From positions 1 to 45,996 of the forward strand of contig CAMAXG010000003.1 in assembly GCA_945862225.1 (NCBI GenBank): a DNA stretch of 45,996 nt. Reading direction: 5' to 3'. This document shows positions 5,861-27,027 of this stretch, in pieces. Below the pieces are notes generated by a model. It made no database searches and was not told where the DNA came from. It saw nothing but the letters and a program-made list of their open reading frames with translations. This stretch comes from Thermoflexus hugenholtzii JAD2. Its GTDB lineage: Bacteria > Chloroflexota > Limnocylindria > Limnocylindrales > Limnocylindraceae. A program made the translations under genes and the position numbers. Every line of letters starts with the position of its first letter. Position 1 is the stretch's first letter.

Positions 5861-6642
5861 TGGCCCGCAAGGCGACGAAGCGGGCAGCTGCGCCAGTGCT
5901 GGAGCTGCGCGGCCTCTCGAAGCGCTACGGGCGCCCCCTGGTGCTCGACAAGATTGATCTCTCACTCGCCGAACACGAGGTCGTCTGCCTGATCGGCGCA
6001 TCAGGTTCGGGGAAATCAACGCTGTTGCGCTGCGCCGACCTACTCGAGCCGATTGACGCCGGCAGCATCACGCTCGACGGGGGCACGGTGAGCGCTGATG
6101 ACCGCGATGCAGACGCGACGCGACGTCAGCTCGGGATCGTCTTCCAGGGGTTCAGCCTCTTCCCGCATCTCACCGCCCTGGAGAATGTGGCGCTTGCTCC
6201 GCGCGTAGCGCTCGGCCTGACCACCGCTGCGGCGGAGAAGCGTGCCCGCGCACTCTTGAAGCAGCTCGGGCTTGCCGCAAAAGCGAACGCGTACCCAGAC
6301 AGCCTCTCGGGTGGACAGCAGCAGCGCGTTGCCATTGCGCGTGCATTAGCGACGGAGCCAAAGGTCTTGTTGCTTGATGAGATCACCAGCGCGCTCGACC
6401 CGGTCTTAGTTGCCGATGTGCTTGAAGCGCTGCGCGCACTCGCAAAGGGCGGCATGACGATGCTCATCGCAACGCATGAGATGGCCTTTGCCGCCGACGT
6501 CGCCGATCGCATCTGCTATCTCGAGGGTGGACGAATTGTGGAAGAGGGAAGCCCAGAGAAGATCTTCAAGGCACCACGAGACCCACGAACGCGCGCGTTC
6601 CTGAAGCGGGTGCGCTCTGTTGGGGCAAGCGCCCTTCGCTAA
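5860..6642 (+). CDS. Polar amino acid ABC transporter ATP-binding protein
   Basis: Walker A GASGSGKS, LSGGQQQR and LLLDEITSALD; TGATG overlap with the permease. Confidence 0.92.
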   Translation: MARKATKRAAAPVLELRGLSKRYGRPLVLDKIDLSLAEHEVVCLIGASGSGKSTLLRCADLLEPIDAGSITLDGGTVSADDRDADATRRQLGIVFQGFSLFPHLTALENVALAPRVALGLTTAAAEKRARALLKQLGLAAKANAYPDSLSGGQQQRVAIARALATEPKVLLLDEITSALDPVLVADVLEALRALAKGGMTMLIATHEMAFAADVADRICYLEGGRIVEEGSPEKIFKAPRDPRTRAFLKRVRSVGASALR

Positions 6643-20640: not shown

Positions 20641-22503
20641 CTACGCGTGCAGCCCGAACTGCACCGCGGCGAGTTCAGCGTAGAGGCCGCCGTTGGCGCG
20701 CAGTTCTTCATGTCGACCGCGCTCCACGATGGTGCCGTGATCCAAGACGATGATCTGATCTGCCGAAGCAACGGTGCTCAGCCGGTGCGCCACGGCGATG
20801 GTGGTGCGGCCCGCCATGGCGCGCTCGAGCGCCTGCTGCACATGGCGCTCCGAGACCGAGTCGAGTGCCGAGGTCGCCTCGTCGAGCAAGAGGATTGGTG
20901 GGTCCTTCAAGAGCACGCGGGCGATGGCAAGGCGCTGACGCTCACCACCAGAGAGCTTGTAGCCGCGCTCCCCTACGACGGTATCGAGCCCCTGCGGCAA
21001 CTCCTTGATGCGCTCTTCCAGCGATGCTCCCGCAAGTGCCGCGAGGATCTGTGTGTCGCTTGCCTCTGGTCGGGCATAGAGCAGGTTGTCGCGGATGCTC
21101 GCATGCAGCAGGTGCGTCTCTTGGGTCACGACGCCGATCATCTCGCCGAGCGATCGCAACTTGATCCCGCGCACATCCACACCATCAACCTGCACCGATC
21201 CGGCGCTCGCATCCCAGAAGCGTGGAATCAAACTCAAGATCGTGCTCTTCCCTGAGCCTGATGGGCCAACGAGCGCGGTGAGGCTCCCTGATTCGGCGGT
21301 GAACGAGATGTTTGTGAGACCGAAGGAATCACGCCTCTGTCGACCCTGGCCCTCGGGTGGCTGCGGATAGCGGAAGCCGACATCGCGCACAGAGACCTGC
21401 CCGCGAACTCCAGCGCGCGTCAGTGTTACCGCGTTCGGCGCGTCCACAATTTCTGGAACAAGGTCGAGGTAGGCAAAGATGCGCTCAAAGAGCGCGAGGC
21501 TTCCACCGATCTCGACCTGCAGACCGAGCAGTGAGGCGAGTGGGAAGAAGAGGCGGCTCTGCAGTGTGGTGAAGGCGACGATGTCACCAATGGTTGGCGC
21601 ATCTGGCGCGCCAGCGACAGAGAGTGAACCAGCGACGAAGTAGACCAGCGCCGGAATGCCGCTGAATACGACTTGCACCACCACGCCGACCCAGCGACCA
21701 GTGAGCGCTTGCCGCAACTGCAGTGTGGCGAGCTCACCGGAGCGATGCGTGAATCGCTCAGCACCAGCCTCAGAGCGACCGAACGACTTGGCAAGAAGTG
21801 CGCCGCCCACGGAGAGGTGCTCTTCAGCAATAGAGGTCAGGTCGGCAAGCGCCGTCTGCACCTCACCACTCGCCTTGCGGCGGGCCGCTGAGGCCTTTGA
21901 GCTTAAGAAGAGGAAGAGCGGCGCAACGGCAACGCTCACCGCTGTGAGGCGCCAGTCGATGATTGTCATCGCCACCAACGTTGAGACGACGATGGCAATG
22001 CTTGATGCCAAGTTCGCGGCGGCGTCACTGACGACTGACTGCACGCCAGAGACATCGTTGGTGAGGCGGCTCTGAATCTCGCCGGTGCGTGTCTCTGAGA
22101 AGAAGCGGATCGGCATCGACTGCACATGGGTGAAGAGGGCGTTGCGCAGGTCGCGCATCACGAACTGGCCAACCGAGGCGGTAAGCCACGCCTGGGCGAG
22201 TCCAATGCCACCGTTGACGATCGGCACCACCACCATCAGCCCGGCGTAGAGGGCCAGCAGGCCAAGATCGCGCTGCGGAATCGCCTCGTCGATGAGGAGC
22301 TTTAGTAGATACGGGTTGGCGAGCCCCAAGATGCTCGACCCAAGGATGGCGAGCCCAATGACGCTCAGTCGCCCTCGATATGGCCCAAAGAACTTGGCCG
22401 CTCGTCGTAGTAGCGGCAGCGCCGCCCCGGCCGGCTTCGTTGGGCCGGTGTCATCGCCGCCGAACATGTGGCCACCACGACCTGAACCCATGCCGCCGCT
22501 CAT
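20641..22503 (-). CDS. ABC exporter, fused permease/ATPase half-transporter (MsbA/Sav1866-like)
   Basis: TM domain followed by GPSGSGKS, LSGGERQR and LLLDEATSALD. Confidence 0.92.
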   Translation of the reverse strand: MSGGMGSGRGGHMFGGDDTGPTKPAGAALPLLRRAAKFFGPYRGRLSVIGLAILGSSILGLANPYLLKLLIDEAIPQRDLGLLALYAGLMVVVPIVNGGIGLAQAWLTASVGQFVMRDLRNALFTHVQSMPIRFFSETRTGEIQSRLTNDVSGVQSVVSDAAANLASSIAIVVSTLVAMTIIDWRLTAVSVAVAPLFLFLSSKASAARRKASGEVQTALADLTSIAEEHLSVGGALLAKSFGRSEAGAERFTHRSGELATLQLRQALTGRWVGVVVQVVFSGIPALVYFVAGSLSVAGAPDAPTIGDIVAFTTLQSRLFFPLASLLGLQVEIGGSLALFERIFAYLDLVPEIVDAPNAVTLTRAGVRGQVSVRDVGFRYPQPPEGQGRQRRDSFGLTNISFTAESGSLTALVGPSGSGKSTILSLIPRFWDASAGSVQVDGVDVRGIKLRSLGEMIGVVTQETHLLHASIRDNLLYARPEASDTQILAALAGASLEERIKELPQGLDTVVGERGYKLSGGERQRLAIARVLLKDPPILLLDEATSALDSVSERHVQQALERAMAGRTTIAVAHRLSTVASADQIIVLDHGTIVERGRHEELRANGGLYAELAAVQFGLHA

Positions 22504-22556
22504 GCGGGCACGGCGAAGAGGGCGAGGGCGTTACGCGTCGGTAGGCGATTGGGCAT
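22500..22556 (-). CDS. Putative leaderless 18 aa uORF (MPNRLPTRNALALFAVPA) coupled to the ABC exporter
   Basis: TAGAAT 6 nt before the ATG at 22556; its TGA overlaps the exporter ATG (ATGA); the exporter has no SD. Confidence 0.45.
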   Translation of the reverse strand: MPNRLPTRNALALFAVPA

Positions 22557-22580
22557 GGCGGGATTCTATCCCGCCGAGCG

Positions 22581-23471
22581 TTAGATCCCTGAACCCTCGG
22601 CAGCGAGCTCGTCGGTGCGCACGCGTGCCTGCGAAAGTTGGCTCCCAGCAGGAACGCTCTTCGTCAGCCATACGTTGCCGCCGATCGTTGAACCGCGTCC
22701 AACGGTGATGCGACCCAGGACCGTCGCCCCGGAGTAGATCACCACGTCGTCTTCGATGATCGGGTGCCGAGGCTGGCCCTTTACGAGGTTGCCGTCTTCA
22801 CCCTTCGGGAAGCTCTTGGAGCCAAGGGTGACGCCTTGATACAGGCGCACGCCACTCCCGATGATCGCCGTCTCGCCGATCACCACGCCGGTGCCATGGT
22901 CAATAAAGAAGCGCTCGCCAATCGTTGCGCCGGGGTGAATGTCGATTCCCGTTGCGGAGTGCGCCGCCTCCGATGCGATGCGCGGCAGGAGCGGCACGCT
23001 CAACGTATAGAGAAGGTGGGCCATGCGGTGGTCAATCATGGCGCGCACGCCAGGGTAGCCATGCAGGATCTCTGAACGGCTGCGTGCTGCTGGGTCTCCC
23101 GCAAACGCTGCGGCGATATCGCCTTCAATCAGCGTGCGAATCGCGGGGAGCTCGGCCGCGAATGCGCTCGTGACGCGATCGACCTGATCAGGGGCGAGCC
23201 CTTCGCCTGGTCGCTCAGCAGCAAAGAGCACCGTGCATCGTCGGATCTGCTCGCGCAGGCCGGCGAGCGCCGCGGTGAGATGCGCGGCTACTGCCGCATC
23301 GCCATCGGCGGCGACGCCGAGCTCGCGTGGGAAGAGTGCCGCACGCAACTCGGCCAACACGCGTGTGATCTCGCCACGCGATGGGCGGTCGCCCGCCGCC
23401 ACCGCGCCGCCCGCGAGGGCAGCGTCGGCAGCGGTGAGTGCACGACTAAGTTCGTTCACCTCAGAACTCAC
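22581..23471 (-). CDS. cysE: Serine O-acetyltransferase (EpsC-type CysE)
   Basis: [34 protein letters not shown] and RHP; GTGA overlap with cysK. Confidence 0.93.
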
Positions 23472-24457
23472 AGGGCGATGCCGCTGGCATCAAAGAGCCC
23501 CTCGTAGAGCGCGGTGCTCAAGTAGCGCTCGCCCGAATCTGGCAGTACCACCACGATGGTCTTCCCCGCGTTCTCTGGCAGGTGCGCCAACTTCAGCGCA
23601 ACGTGTGCGGCAGCGCCGCATGAGATGCCAACGAGGATCCCCTCTTCGCGAGCGATGCGACGCGCCATGGCGATCGCCTCTTCGTTCGTCACTGACTCAA
23701 CCTGATCAATCAGCGAGATATCAAGAATGTCAGGAACGAATCCTGGCCCGATCCCTTGAATCTTGTGCGGCGCAGGCTGATTTGGCTGGCCAGCAATGCG
23801 CTGCGCAATGACTGGGCTGGTGGCAGGCTCAACGGCAACGATGTGTACCGCCTTACCACGACCCTTCTTGAAGTAGCGAGCGACGCCGGTAATGGTGCCG
23901 CCGGTGCCACTCCCTGCAACGAAGATGTCGACCTTCCCGTCGGTGTCTGCCCAGATCTCTGGACCGGTGGTTGACTCATGAATGGCCGGGCCGGCTGGGT
24001 TTTTGAACTGCTGCAGCAGCACGTAGCGTGCAGGATCTGATGCGGCAATCTCTTCCGCCTTCGCGATCGCGCCGGGCATTCCCTTTGCGCCCTCGGTAAG
24101 CACCAGCGTTGCGCCGTAGGCAACGATGAGCTTGCGTCGCTCAATGCTGACGGTGTCGGGCATGGTGAGGGTGACCTTGTAGCCGCGTGCCGCACCAACC
24201 ATCGCCAAGGCAATGCCGGTGTTGCCGCTCGTTGGCTCAACGATCTCTACGCCTGGCTTCAGTACGCCGCGCTTCTCGGCGTCGAGCACCATGGCGGTGC
24301 CAAGTCGGCACTTCACGGAGTAGGCAGGATTGCGCCCCTCAACCTTGGCAAGCACCGTTGCGGCGGCGCCGTCGGTGACGCGGTTCAGGCGCACGAGTGG
24401 CGTACCGCCAATGGTGATCGCGTTGTCGGAGAAGATCTCTGGGTTCTGAACGCTCAT
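23468..24457 (-). CDS. cysK: Cysteine synthase A (O-acetylserine sulfhydrylase)
   Basis: PLP lysine in [31 protein letters not shown] and [10 protein letters not shown]. Confidence 0.95.
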
Positions 24458-24538
24458 GTCGGGTACCTCCAGCTACATGGTGGGTGGTGGACTACATCCG
24501 CCGCCCCCTCTGCCGTTTGGTCCCTGGTTGCGATCGCC

Positions 24539-24631
24539 TCAGCGCGCGCAGGACGGCCCGAAGGAGAGCGACGGGCATCGACAGATGCTCGGCTCGCCAG
24601 CGGCTTGGGCAATGAGGTCAGCTGCGGTCAT
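24539..24631 (-). CDS. Putative leaderless Cys-containing leader peptide (MTAADLIAQAAGEPSICRCPSLSFGPSCAR)
   Basis: TACGAT (24643-24638) plus 6 nt plus ATG; 3 Cys codons in the C-terminal half; ends 81 nt before cysK. Confidence 0.65.
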   Translation of the reverse strand: MTAADLIAQAAGEPSICRCPSLSFGPSCAR

Positions 24632-24685
24632 ATGGATATCGTATCGCCTACGCGTGGAGGTCGTTACTGCAACGTCTCGCAACCG

Positions 24686-25270
24686 CTAGATGCGGCGCGT
24701 GACCCCATCAATGAAGCTAAGGAGGCTCCCCTTGCGAAGGGTGGGGGTGATCCAGAGGCGCCAAAGCGCGGCAACAACCTTCAGTGCGAGGTAGATCGCA
24801 AGTGCCCCGGCCGCTCGGGCCATGATGTCGTGCACGTCGATCCGATACGGCGGTACTGGGCTCGAGAAGTAGTTAGAGAAGCCCTGGCTGATCTCGAGGC
24901 CCACCGCAATGATGCCGATGACCGCAAACGCTGCGCGTCGGGCATCGCCATAGAGGGCAAGGGTTGCGAGCAAGAATGTTGATGCGCCCATGCTGACCTG
25001 CACCAGCAGCCACTGCGTTTGCAGAAGGGCAGGGTCAAAGTCCATAAATGGAATCAGGCGGATCACATCGCTGCCGAGCGGAGCACGCGACCAATCAGAG
25101 TTGGGAAATCCGAACGGTGCCCAAACGTAGGCGACGAGGGCGGCAAACGCGATGGCACTCACCATCGTTCCGCGGGATTGATGGATGCGCTGCGACCGCT
25201 GCACAAACAGCACAACAAGGAAGCTAACCAGCCCCCCGATGATGCCCGTCCAGTCCCACTGCGCCAGCAT
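24686..25270 (-). CDS. Membrane protein, VanZ-like
   Basis: IRLIPF, GLEISQ and RIDVHDIMAR resemble the VanZ pattern; about 5 TM; TAAAAT 7 nt before the ATG. Confidence 0.6.
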   Translation of the reverse strand: MLAQWDWTGIIGGLVSFLVVLFVQRSQRIHQSRGTMVSAIAFAALVAYVWAPFGFPNSDWSRAPLGSDVIRLIPFMDFDPALLQTQWLLVQVSMGASTFLLATLALYGDARRAAFAVIGIIAVGLEISQGFSNYFSSPVPPYRIDVHDIMARAAGALAIYLALKVVAALWRLWITPTLRKGSLLSFIDGVTRRI

Positions 25271-25332
25271 GTCTGGGATTTTACCGAACGGGCTCCGTTT
25301 CCGCCAACCCCCTCAGGCGATACGATGCACGC

Positions 25333-26502
25333 ATGAATACTCGAGAGCGCATGCAGCTCTTTCTTCGCAGCGAGACCGTGGGTGGCGCGCTGCTGATCGC
25401 TGCAGCGCTCATCGGCATCCTCCTGGCGAACAGCCCCCTCTCAGAGGTACTGCGCGCCGTTGCCACGACGCAGATCGGCAGCGACGCGCTCCACCTGAAC
25501 CTCACCGTGCAGGAGTGGGCCGCGGATGGGTTGCTCGCCATCTTCTTCTTTGTGATCGGCTGCGAGCTCAAGCATGAGCTGGTGGTGGGCACACTCTCGA
25601 AGCCGCGCCAGGCGGCCCTGCCGGTTGCCGCGGCACTCGGCGGGATGATCGTTCCAGCGCTCTTCTACGTTGCAATCAATCAGGGCGGTGCCGCCGATGC
25701 GCTCAGCGGCTGGGGTATTCCGATGGCCACAGATATCGCCTTCGCCCTCGCAGTGCTTGCGGTGCTCGGTCGCGGACTGCCCACTGGCGTGCGCACCTTC
25801 TTGCTGACACTGGCGGTGGTCGACGATCTCGGAGCGATTCTAGTAATCGCACTCTTCTACTCCGCGAGCCTGCACGTAGAGTGGCTAGTCATTGCAGCGG
25901 TGCTGCTCGCACTCTTTGCGATCGCGCAGCGACAACGCATCACCTCACCGCTCATCTACGTGCCCCTTGCACTCGGCACCTGGTACGCCGTGCATAGTGC
26001 TGGGATTCATCCAACGATCGCGGGCGTTGCCCTCGGGCTACTGATGCGCGTCAAGAAAGATCCTGGCGAGCAAGATGCACCCGTTGACCGCGCAACGGAA
26101 CGCTTCCATCCCATCAGTGCGGCGATCGCCGTGCCGCTCTTCGCCCTCTTCGCCGCTGCAGTTGACCTTCGCTCCATCGACCTCGGTGCGGTAACCGGTT
26201 CGCCAATTCTGCTCGGCGTACTTGTTGGCCTTGTCCTCGGCAAGCCAATCGGCATTCTTCTCGCCGCCCGGCTTGCAACCGCGCTAGGGGCGAAGCTTTC
26301 GGCGGGCATGCGCTGGATTGACATCGCCCTCGTTGGTGCACTTGGAGGGATCGGCTTTACCGTCTCGCTGCTCATTAGTGAGCTCGCCTTTGCTAACGAG
26401 GCGTCGCTCGGTGCCGCCAAGATTGGCGTCTTGATCGCGTCAGTTGCCGCAGTTGCACTCGCTGCCGTTGTTCTCGCCCTGCGGCGATCACTCGCTCGCT
26501 AG
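25333..26502 (+). CDS. nhaA: Na+/H+ antiporter NhaA
   Basis: DGLLAIFFF, GWGIPMATDIAF, LAVVDDLGAI, GKPIGI and GIGFTVSL. Confidence 0.95.
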   Translation: MNTRERMQLFLRSETVGGALLIAAALIGILLANSPLSEVLRAVATTQIGSDALHLNLTVQEWAADGLLAIFFFVIGCELKHELVVGTLSKPRQAALPVAAALGGMIVPALFYVAINQGGAADALSGWGIPMATDIAFALAVLAVLGRGLPTGVRTFLLTLAVVDDLGAILVIALFYSASLHVEWLVIAAVLLALFAIAQRQRITSPLIYVPLALGTWYAVHSAGIHPTIAGVALGLLMRVKKDPGEQDAPVDRATERFHPISAAIAVPLFALFAAAVDLRSIDLGAVTGSPILLGVLVGLVLGKPIGILLAARLATALGAKLSAGMRWIDIALVGALGGIGFTVSLLISELAFANEASLGAAKIGVLIASVAAVALAAVVLALRRSLAR

Positions 26503-26535
26503 CCCAACTCGATCGCGTTCGGATATCCTCGCGCC

Positions 26536-27027
26536 ATGGAAAACACCACGTTGAACCGCACCCTGGAGCACATGGCCTGGGCGAACACCCAGATGTTCAC
26601 AGTGCTTGCAGCACTTCCTGTTGATGCGCTCGCCTACACCTCACCCGGCTCCGAATGGAGCGTTGGAGCGATTACCCATCACCTGGTCACCGCCGCCGAG
26701 AACTACGCGCAGCGACTGCACGGTGAGCCGCGCGCCGAGAAGCGCGAGCTCCCCACCACCATCGCCGATCTCGCCGCCCTCGCGGTCGCCGTGAAGGTTG
26801 CCGACGCCAAGCTCCATGCGGGTGCGCAGCTCCCCGGCGACGAGATCCTCACCTGGATCTCGTACGGCGGTGAAGAGATCTCCGTACCCCGTTGGGTGCT
26901 CATCAACCAGGCGGTGCACCACGCCACCGAGCATCGCGCCCAGATCGCTGGTGCACTCGCCGCGAACGGCAACACCACGCTCGACCTCGATGCGCTCGAC
27001 GTCTGGACGTATAACGACGCCCTCTAG
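26536..27027 (+). CDS. DinB family protein
   Basis: HMAWAN, HHLVTA and HHATEHRAQI metal-binding histidines. Confidence 0.85.
   Translation: MENTTLNRTLEHMAWANTQMFTVLAALPVDALAYTSPGSEWSVGAITHHLVTAAENYAQRLHGEPRAEKRELPTTIADLAALAVAVKVADAKLHAGAQLPGDEILTWISYGGEEISVPRWVLINQAVHHATEHRAQIAGALAANGNTTLDLDALDVWTYNDAL

Follow-up and report, generated by a model that had tools for sequence, protein, structure and literature searches.

The question raised by this locus is whether the cysteine synthesis genes of an uncultured, genome-streamlined bacterium are governed by ribosomes that read a very short open reading frame (ORF) ahead of them. The locus lies on the minus strand of a 45,996-nt stretch of contig CAMAXG010000003.1 (hereafter the window; G+C 63%). 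It consists of a mini-ORF of 30 codons plus TGA, MTAADLIAQAAGEPSICRCPSLSFGPSCAR (24539..24631; ATG at 24631-24629, TGA at 24541-24539), followed by a cysK-cysE operon. The source genome, G000, has been assembled to 1.11 Mb in 77 contigs, with a completeness of 90%. An original prediction, made from the letters of the window, had proposed a leaderless ORF that senses cysteine through dispersed Cys codons. In this study, comparison with relatives suggests that the mini-ORF is a Cys-responsive ribosomal sensor and serves as the leader (attenuator) of the cysK-cysE operon, a reading to which we assign a probability of roughly 0.7. Any particular mechanism by which such a sensor would act on cysK is held at less than even odds.

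Conservation of the mini-ORF and its cysteine codon

Sixty-one distinct leaders were compared, of which 19 belong to type A, 23 to type B and 19 to type C; one additional regular-expression match was rejected as a spurious leader. The peptide GEPSIC is invariant in all 61, across the three types. Three of its codons turn over synonymously: Gly (GGC 23, GGT 22, GGG 16), Glu (GAG 43, GAA 18) and Ser (AGC 21, TCG 24, TCC 12, TCA 4), the last including switches from AGC to TCN. The codons for Pro (CCG), Ile (ATC) and Cys (TGT) are fixed throughout. Every leader thus has TGT at Cys17, yet TGC accounts for 81% of the Cys codons in the long ORFs of G000. Conservation of the peptide ends at this residue, because the codon that follows varies (CGA in 39 leaders, TGA in 19, CCT in 2, CAA in 1). 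All 61 leaders place the Cys codon 45-48 nt from the 5' end. The ORF is 30, 29 or 16 codons long depending on leader type, and within a type its length and stop vary little.

An alignment of 13 leaders shows, in every case, the same frame, a start codon (ATG, once GTG) with a TANNNT box 6 nt ahead of it, and a TGA stop. The 30 nt of a central stretch, GAGCCGAGCATCTGTCGATGCCCGTCGCTC, retain 100% identity down to the most divergent type A leader, whose CysK has only 84%. A search of 1.84 billion representative proteins gave no match to the mini-ORF, which carries little weight because tiny ORFs are rarely called. Taken together, sequence comparison indicates that the mini-ORF, with its start and −10 box, is clearly real and conserved beyond chance. 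The TACGAT box, the 6-nt gap and the 30-residue ORF of the original prediction were found at the positions given above, as were all the features it had listed, and the alignment of cysK upstream regions that it had proposed as a check shows the frame kept and Cys17 retained. Its idea of several dispersed sensor codons survives for Cys17, which is kept in all types; Cys19 is restricted to type A, and Cys28 is replaced by Val in one divergent type A genome (G024) and displaced in another (G055).

A TANNNT box precedes the start codon in all 61 distinct leaders, at 6 nt in 42 and at 7 nt in 19; in the window it is TACGAT (24638..24643), separated from the ATG by ATCCAT. Among 40 metagenome contigs with the 24-nt core, the 38 with sufficient flank all open with an ATG that has the −10 box at −12, and run to 29-30 codons; nearly all of the contigs represent the same two sequence types, and they added no compensatory changes. 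Genome-wide, TANNNT occurs at −12 of the first ATG or GTG in 5.66%, and at −13 in 1.28%, of 1713 G000 ORFs of at least 150 codons, as compared with 0.04-0.25% at internal in-frame start codons. Because of this peak at −12, leaderless mRNAs seem to be common in the streamlined G000 genome. No canonical sigma-70-type −35/−10 pair was found in 24300-24900, and the ORF listing shows the frame only as a 47-residue ORF from an upstream TTG (24539..24682). The mini-ORF is very probably the leaderless first cistron before cysK-cysE, as far as promoter spacing can tell.

RNA was represented by assembled contigs from public lake and river metatranscriptomes (Logan). In run X4, a 1249-nt contig spans cysK and the leader and stops without a loose end at 24627, missing the ATG by 4 nt; in run X1, a contig stops at 24604 and continues into adapter sequence. 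Three of four RNA runs have zero cover at 24680-24807 and a depth of at most 1.72 at 24616-24679, and the contig depth of the upstream gene ranges from roughly equal (X4) to about 17-fold lower; such uncovered stretches and depths are evidence neither of a 5' end nor of expression level. A contig from river run X6 matches only the conserved core (24569-24602) and then continues as leader sequence of the G055 type, which indicates that this divergent leader is also present in an RNA library.

Paralogous leaders and distribution

Type A leaders precede cysK-cysE, and the same sensor heads two more sulfur loci in the genus. In a six-frame scan of G000, a second GEPSIC mini-ORF was found on contig C15 (about 6054-6146, minus strand; locus L099), with the sequence MSAAELIASVAGEPSICRRSHVPGLRSLAR and a TACGAT box 7 nt upstream. 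This type B leader lies between a pair of sufS-sufU-like genes (a class-V aminotransferase of the cysteine desulfurase type and a NifU_N gene) and a gene for a DUF4395 membrane protein. The type C leader of relatives (L125-L144) reads MTSTQLRALEGEPSIC and then TGA at once, giving 16 codons, with TATCGT 6 nt upstream; it precedes the genes for a double-rhodanese sulfurtransferase and SufE. Neither this leader nor its rhodanese gene was found in the 90% complete G000. The nucleotides after the type C stop (CGCTCGCAT) still match type B1, as if the CGA codon had turned into TGA. Since the GEPSIC sensor stands at the head of these further loci, the result would be one cysteine regulon coordinated by ribosomes.

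By DNA similarity, the leader was detected in 20 of 42 genomes of the family, which is represented by one genus in the collection. Only about half of the genus genomes searched possess the cysK-cysE operon; the rest have only a PALP paralogue of 41-46% identity, and the operon with its leader looks accessory in this sample. A back-translated AGEPSICR pattern matched 14 of 401 genomes of the class, all from one genus (13 of 15 sampled, plus G000), and its reversed control gave one match. A looser peptide pattern applied phylum-wide was set aside, its 10 matches outside the genus in 396 genomes being at chance level beside 13 for the reversed control. One of the ten is a true relative: in G029, from a sister family, TAGTGT, 6 nt and an ATG lead into MTRELLCLHEGEPCICRRRGLAAVEHALRF before a DUF4395 gene. 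The exact 21-nt ORF core was found in 21 species-representative genomes, of which 15 are assigned to Chloroflexota/Chloroflexi, Candidatus (Ca.) Limnocylindrus or Ca. Aquidulcis, two are labelled 'MAG: bacterium' and four are Streptomyces. The Streptomyces matches (L047, L055, L060, L061) were dismissed as chance, lying in another frame within the coding sequence of orthologous membrane proteins. Ca. Limnocylindrus belongs to the class Ca. Limnocylindria of the phylum Chloroflexota; the suggestion that the system might lie outside Actinomycetota was therefore right.

With DUF4395 as the anchor, 19 of 25 loci outside the genus (16 recognized by script and 3 by inspection) have an upstream mini-ORF containing [C/S]xC[RPTL]RR. 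The last Cys codon of these class-level mini-ORFs is TGT. Several of them share EGEP[C/S]xC, and others have unrelated N-termini, for example MSEVARVGCTCLQCSCRRRV. Across the class, no other gene follows such Cys mini-ORFs as often as DUF4395, which in G035 and G036 is itself succeeded by cysE-cysK. Two unpublished genomes, G104 and G148, entered some of the tallies, and none of the claims made here depends on them. The genes after DUF4395 are mixed: Pyr_redox_2, EamA and metallo-beta-lactamase occur once each, and 11 of the 16 tested ORFs have no Pfam match. When cysK was used as the anchor in the sister family, no GEPSIC leader was found directly 5' of cysK at 16 loci. Nine of these loci have a closely similar upstream gene end and seven have another upstream gene. 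Confirmation that the gene upstream is cysE was obtained for G035 and G036 only.

Folding of the leader RNA and the surrounding genes

The sensor codon Cys17 (UGU, 24581..24583; nt 49-51 of the predicted transcript) would lie in the loop of a predicted hairpin, H1, formed by GGCGAGCCGAGCAUC-UGUC-GAUGCCCGUCGCUCUCC (24563..24598; nt 34-69). The folding energy of H1 in the window, a type A leader, is −16.5 kcal/mol (z −2.15). Comparable z-scores were obtained for B1 (−2.04) and B2 (−2.01), with −3.40 for the type A leader of G055 and +0.20 for type C. In the type A alignment, 93.6% of the cells are paired and 2 of 14 pairs are changed on both sides; this covariation is thin, as 29 of 500 shuffles score as high. 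The pairings of H1 differ between types because its 3' arm changes along with the synonymous codons used in the 5' arm. Class-level leaders also have a predicted hairpin at or just after their Cys codons, with a negative z in 16 of 19 and a z of −2 or less in only 6 of 19.

The 3' arm of H1 contains the post-Cys segment CCGUCGCUCUC (24564..24574), which can alternatively form an 11-bp helix (8 Watson-Crick and 3 G-U pairs) with the G-rich segment GGGGGCGGCGG (24498..24508). RNAalifold picks this helix in the 19 type A leaders. Divergent type A lineages form the same pairing with other sequence, beyond chance (G055: 13 bp, z −4.1, 0/500; G024: z −2.8, 7/500), and the helix is absent in B1 (z +0.27). 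The post-Cys helix is thus maintained by different sequence in G055 and G024, H1 covaries thinly within type A, and the C-rich segment CCACCACCCACC (24479..24490), an imperfect partner of the G-rich one, varies among relatives (CCACAACCC, CCACCGCCC) without compensation. The original prediction had arranged these segments as a relay of three helices, and this arrangement was not borne out. Its first helix is plausible and within composition in the window; the other two, an imperfect pairing of the G-rich segment with UCCACCACC and a pairing of CCACCA over the cysK Shine-Dalgarno (SD) sequence, are as weak as it had described them and are not conserved.

The SD sequence of cysK, GGAGG (24466..24470), is kept in the leader alignments. 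Its predicted partners do not include the Cys codon: they are GGGACC (24519..24524), which in the minimum-energy fold would act as an anti-SD strand by pairing with GGU-ACCC and so covering the SD in its 3' half, or ORF nt 21-29 (UGCCCAAGC, 24603..24611) in the RNAalifold consensus. The consensus pairs 21-29 with 161-170, with 4 pairs changed on both sides, an alignment-dependent count that comes from only two divergent sequences. In the divergent leaders the SD would be paired alike by other sequences (GCACCAGGC with GCCUGAGGUGC in G055, GCGCCUCGC with GCGAGGCGC in G024). Sequestration of the SD is predicted in B2 and G024 as well as in class-level leaders, where the probability that the SD is unpaired, P(unpaired), does not exceed 0.08 in 12 of 17 cases and the means for shuffled sequences are 0.12-0.32.

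The spacer from the stop of the mini-ORF to the cysK ATG (24457) is 81 nt and holds the G-rich and C-rich segments. It is followed by cysK (23468..24457, minus strand; 329 residues), identified as cysteine synthase A (PALP, 5.3e-74; TIGR01139, 447 bits, cut-off 350.95). The next gene, which overlaps the cysK stop by 4 nt, encodes a serine O-acetyltransferase of the CysE/EpsC type (22581..23471, minus strand; 296 residues; Hexapep; NF041874, 160.5 bits, cut-off 150); its score against TIGR01172 cysE, 164.4 bits, is below the cut-off of 210.65. Upstream of the leader, a 194-residue ORF (24686-25270, minus strand) ends with TAG at 24688-24686. It matches no family above threshold, and a weak VanZ-like match (E 0.002) is below the cut-off. 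In most type A loci, this ORF ends just ahead of a conserved 20-nt box.

This box, TTGCGAGACGTTGCAGTAAC (24663..24682, minus strand), is an imperfect palindrome or direct repeat with its center about 43 nt 5' of the ATG of the mini-ORF. It is present in 18 of 19 type A leaders, the exception being G024, and reads ATGCAACATGTTGCAT in G055. At 23 nt from the −10 box it is too distant for a −35 element. A transcription factor may bind it and so provide another layer of control. An Rfam 15 scan (E ≤ 10) found no family in the leader, and its two sub-threshold matches in 22000-27000 are both outside it. No terminator-like site was found in 24300-24900, and the leader has no U run.

The sensor reading and its alternatives

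If the mini-ORF is a cysteine sensor, transcription would begin at or beside the ATG at 24631, as suggested by the fixed −10 spacing and the genome-wide leaderless signature, and 70S ribosomes would translate the 30-codon leader, in keeping with its coding-type conservation. When charged tRNA-Cys is scarce, a ribosome would pause with the wobble-read UGU codon 17 in its A site, after nascent GEPSI, by analogy with the mycobacterial leaders discussed below. Together with another ribosome, which is probably queued behind it on the first 48 nt, the paused ribosome would keep H1 unfolded, along with the rest of the 5' half of the leader. The least supported step is the outcome, in which a changed downstream fold would expose the cysK SD; one possible route is that pairing of the post-Cys and G-rich segments breaks a stacked hairpin that closes the anti-SD:SD helix. 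Given a Cys sensor, such translational unmasking of the SD is the output we tentatively place foremost, somewhat short of an even chance. Rho-dependent termination or polarity would be a possible but doubtful output, stabilization of the mRNA by stalled ribosomes near the 5' end an improbable one, and the remainder falls to some other output.

Several observations weigh against this reading. The leader has a single sensor codon and no Cys run. The SD of the window is no more paired than in shuffled sequences (P(unpaired) 0.42 against 0.22 ± 0.16, with 35 of 40 shuffles as low or lower). The post-Cys:G-rich duplex in the window, which exists as predicted, is likewise within chance (−22.9 against −19.2 ± 3.1 kcal/mol; z −1.2, 51/500). 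Folding under ribosome-footprint constraints, which the original prediction had recommended, did not free the SD. In these ribosome-mask models, which describe equilibrium only, the mean P(unpaired) of the SD over the 19 type A leaders is 0.33 in the free RNA, 0.35 with a ribosome stalled at the Cys codon and 0.36 at the stop; the window gives 0.42 whether the RNA is free, has a ribosome at Cys or carries two ribosomes, and 0.40 with one at the stop, and thus no switch. In a set of 26 representative leaders, the SD became more exposed in several cases, and only when the ribosome stood at the stop codon (B2 from 0.00 to 0.36, L182 from 0.00 to 0.39, L178 from 0.00 to 0.22). This opening fits simple translational coupling, which would have the wrong sign for a biosynthetic operon. 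A contig of run X7 bridges 24563-24717, and the RNA contigs as a whole are only a weak hint about the start, because contigs cannot prove a 5' end. In addition, the 30 invariant nucleotides around the Cys codon could be an RNA or DNA site for a factor, and the upstream box may point to control that operates in part or entirely at transcription. The sensor is well supported, while its wiring to cysK is more doubtful, because the ribosome masks gave no consistent release of the SD.

The closest alternative retains the UGU-17 sensor and changes the output to transcription: pausing would alter the leader fold or the coupling of ribosome and RNA polymerase and thereby decide whether Rho terminates transcription, either ahead of cysK or inside it. 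Since Rho is encoded in G000 (TIGR00767, 596 bits, cut-off 509), such a branch is possible, and the lack of an intrinsic terminator in 24300-24900, the C-rich stretch at 24490-24479 between the mini-ORF and cysK, and the absence of an SD switch in the equilibrium folds all agree with it. Rho has also been proposed for terminator-less actinobacterial Cys leaders in the available part of one report (PMC1262725). However, the C-rich stretch is short and variable and adjoins a G-rich one, and the pairing of SD and anti-SD by different sequences in different lineages favors translational control; the Rho alternative is judged unlikely. A further proposal is that GEPSIC acts as an arrest peptide, its nascent chain slowing or stopping the ribosome at or after the Cys codon and thereby amplifying a one-codon starvation signal, or sensing free cysteine or thiol in the tunnel. 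Amino-acid invariance of GEPSIC with synonymous turnover, including AGC to TCN, is what this proposal expects, and it is also consistent with EGEP[C/S]xC in other families of the class, with the constant 45-48 nt between the 5' end and the Cys codon in ORFs of 16 or 30 codons, and with the Cys-UGA ending of type C, a termination-site geometry like that of TnaC. However, many class-level leaders lack GEP and have only CxC-RR, as in MSEVARVGCTCLQCSCRRRV, and the paralogues are young duplicates within one genus, whose likeness may reflect inheritance and the constraint of the hairpin; arrest is judged fairly improbable.

Two alternatives give the ribosome a smaller part. The conserved core might serve for recognition at the level of RNA or DNA, with a protein or small ligand binding its hairpin and the ORF being incidental or secondary. 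The identity of 30 nt where CysK is only 84% identical, the recurrence of H1 with different pairings in A, B1 and B2, and the match of type C to B1 beyond the stop would suit such an element. However, no Rfam family matched at E ≤ 10; the start, −10 spacing, frame and stop are preserved in 61 of 61 leaders, while three codons turn over synonymously; and H1 has a z of +0.20 in type C and, in type A, covariation of 2 pairs that 29 of 500 shuffles equal. This alternative is regarded as quite improbable. It is more improbable still that the mini-ORF encodes a free-standing small protein, a thiol or metal peptide co-transcribed with sulfur genes. The peptide core is conserved and is always the first cistron of sulfur-related operons, as such a protein would be; the C-terminal halves, however, differ by type, type C has only 16 residues, the N-termini are unrelated across the class, and the 1.84 billion representative proteins include no relative, although tiny ORFs are rarely called.

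The sensor reading can be carried further, as a long shot. GEPSIC leaders may be a new class of programmed-pause peptides of the arrest type, in which nascent G-E-P-S-I, one wobble-read UGU some 46-51 nt into a leaderless transcript, and the hairpin would jointly form a one-codon sensor of cysteine (as Cys-tRNA or thiol), with copies coordinating a sulfur regulon in Limnocylindria (cysK-cysE, DUF4395, rhodanese-SufE). In that case, DUF4395 would be marked as a cysteine- or sulfur-handling membrane protein.

Comparison with known cysteine leaders

The hallmark of trp-type attenuators, a terminator hairpin with a U run, is absent from this leader. TnaC is an arrest peptide that responds to tryptophan, and ErmCL is another arrest leader. 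Like both, the leaders described here conserve the nascent peptide immediately ahead of the critical codon; in TnaC and ErmCL the stalled ribosome remodels the leader, whereas no ligand or drug is known here. A literature search, judged mostly from titles and the starts of abstracts and covering few subscription journals, found no published work on Cys leader mini-ORFs in Chloroflexota.

The nearest counterparts are the leaderless polycysteine small ORFs (sORFs) of mycobacteria. In the accessible text on this 'Cys ribulon' (Canestrari et al. 2020; 10.1101/834739), Ms5788A and other such sORFs regulate cysteine loci by blocking a structure that sequesters the SD; Rv2334A precedes cysK1-cysE, another precedes a thiosulfate sulfurtransferase operon, and the criterion is at least two consecutive Cys codons. 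As far as that text goes, both systems have a leaderless first cistron that contains Cys codons, is about 16-30 codons long and precedes cysteine or sulfur operons, including cysK-cysE and one for a sulfurtransferase; both have several loci per genome and no terminator, and SD sequestration is predicted in many of the relatives studied here. They differ in that the present leaders belong to Chloroflexota and have no Cys run: the window has C-R-C, one UGU is invariant in the genus, and class relatives have CxC. The Cys codon is in the middle of the ORF, 13 codons before the stop, rather than at the 3' end, and it is not an SD partner in the predicted folds; a GEPSIC peptide and a hairpin surround it instead.

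A Cys leader outside Actinomycetota is also described in the available portion of a report on the uORFC-8-2 motif before cysS of Rhodobacterales (PMC8632094), where tandem Cys codons 14-15 are combined with a terminator. The Cys codons of that motif have a similar position, and its upstream ORF is contained in the first stem of a structured leader. The motif differs in its tandem Cys codons, its SD-led upstream ORF, its intrinsic terminator, which has a U run, and its tRNA synthetase target, whereas the present leader is leaderless, lacks a terminator and precedes biosynthetic genes. Terminator-less Cys leader peptides were predicted in Actinobacteria by Seliverstov et al. 2005 (PMC1262725); in the part available, these candidates are likewise short Cys-codon ORFs before cys operons without a terminator hairpin, with Rho suggested as the effector. 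Their Cys runs are near the stop, the lineage is another one, and that part reports no shared peptide motif.

In sum, if the sensor reading is correct, control of cysteine genes by leaderless mini-ORFs and ribosomes would not be peculiar to mycobacteria, and would also operate, with a different design, in an abundant, uncultured and genome-streamlined freshwater lineage of another phylum. The leaders offer a small, sequence-defined system for how one codon serves as a starvation sensor, with three natural variants, one of which ends at the Cys codon, and DUF4395, a family of unknown function, becomes consistently tied to cysteine metabolism. None of this would alter how attenuation is understood in general. 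Compared with known Cys leaders, the system is best read as new in four respects: one invariant UGU rather than a Cys run, a peptide and hairpin context for that codon, three sulfur loci under the same sensor, and its occurrence in Chloroflexota.

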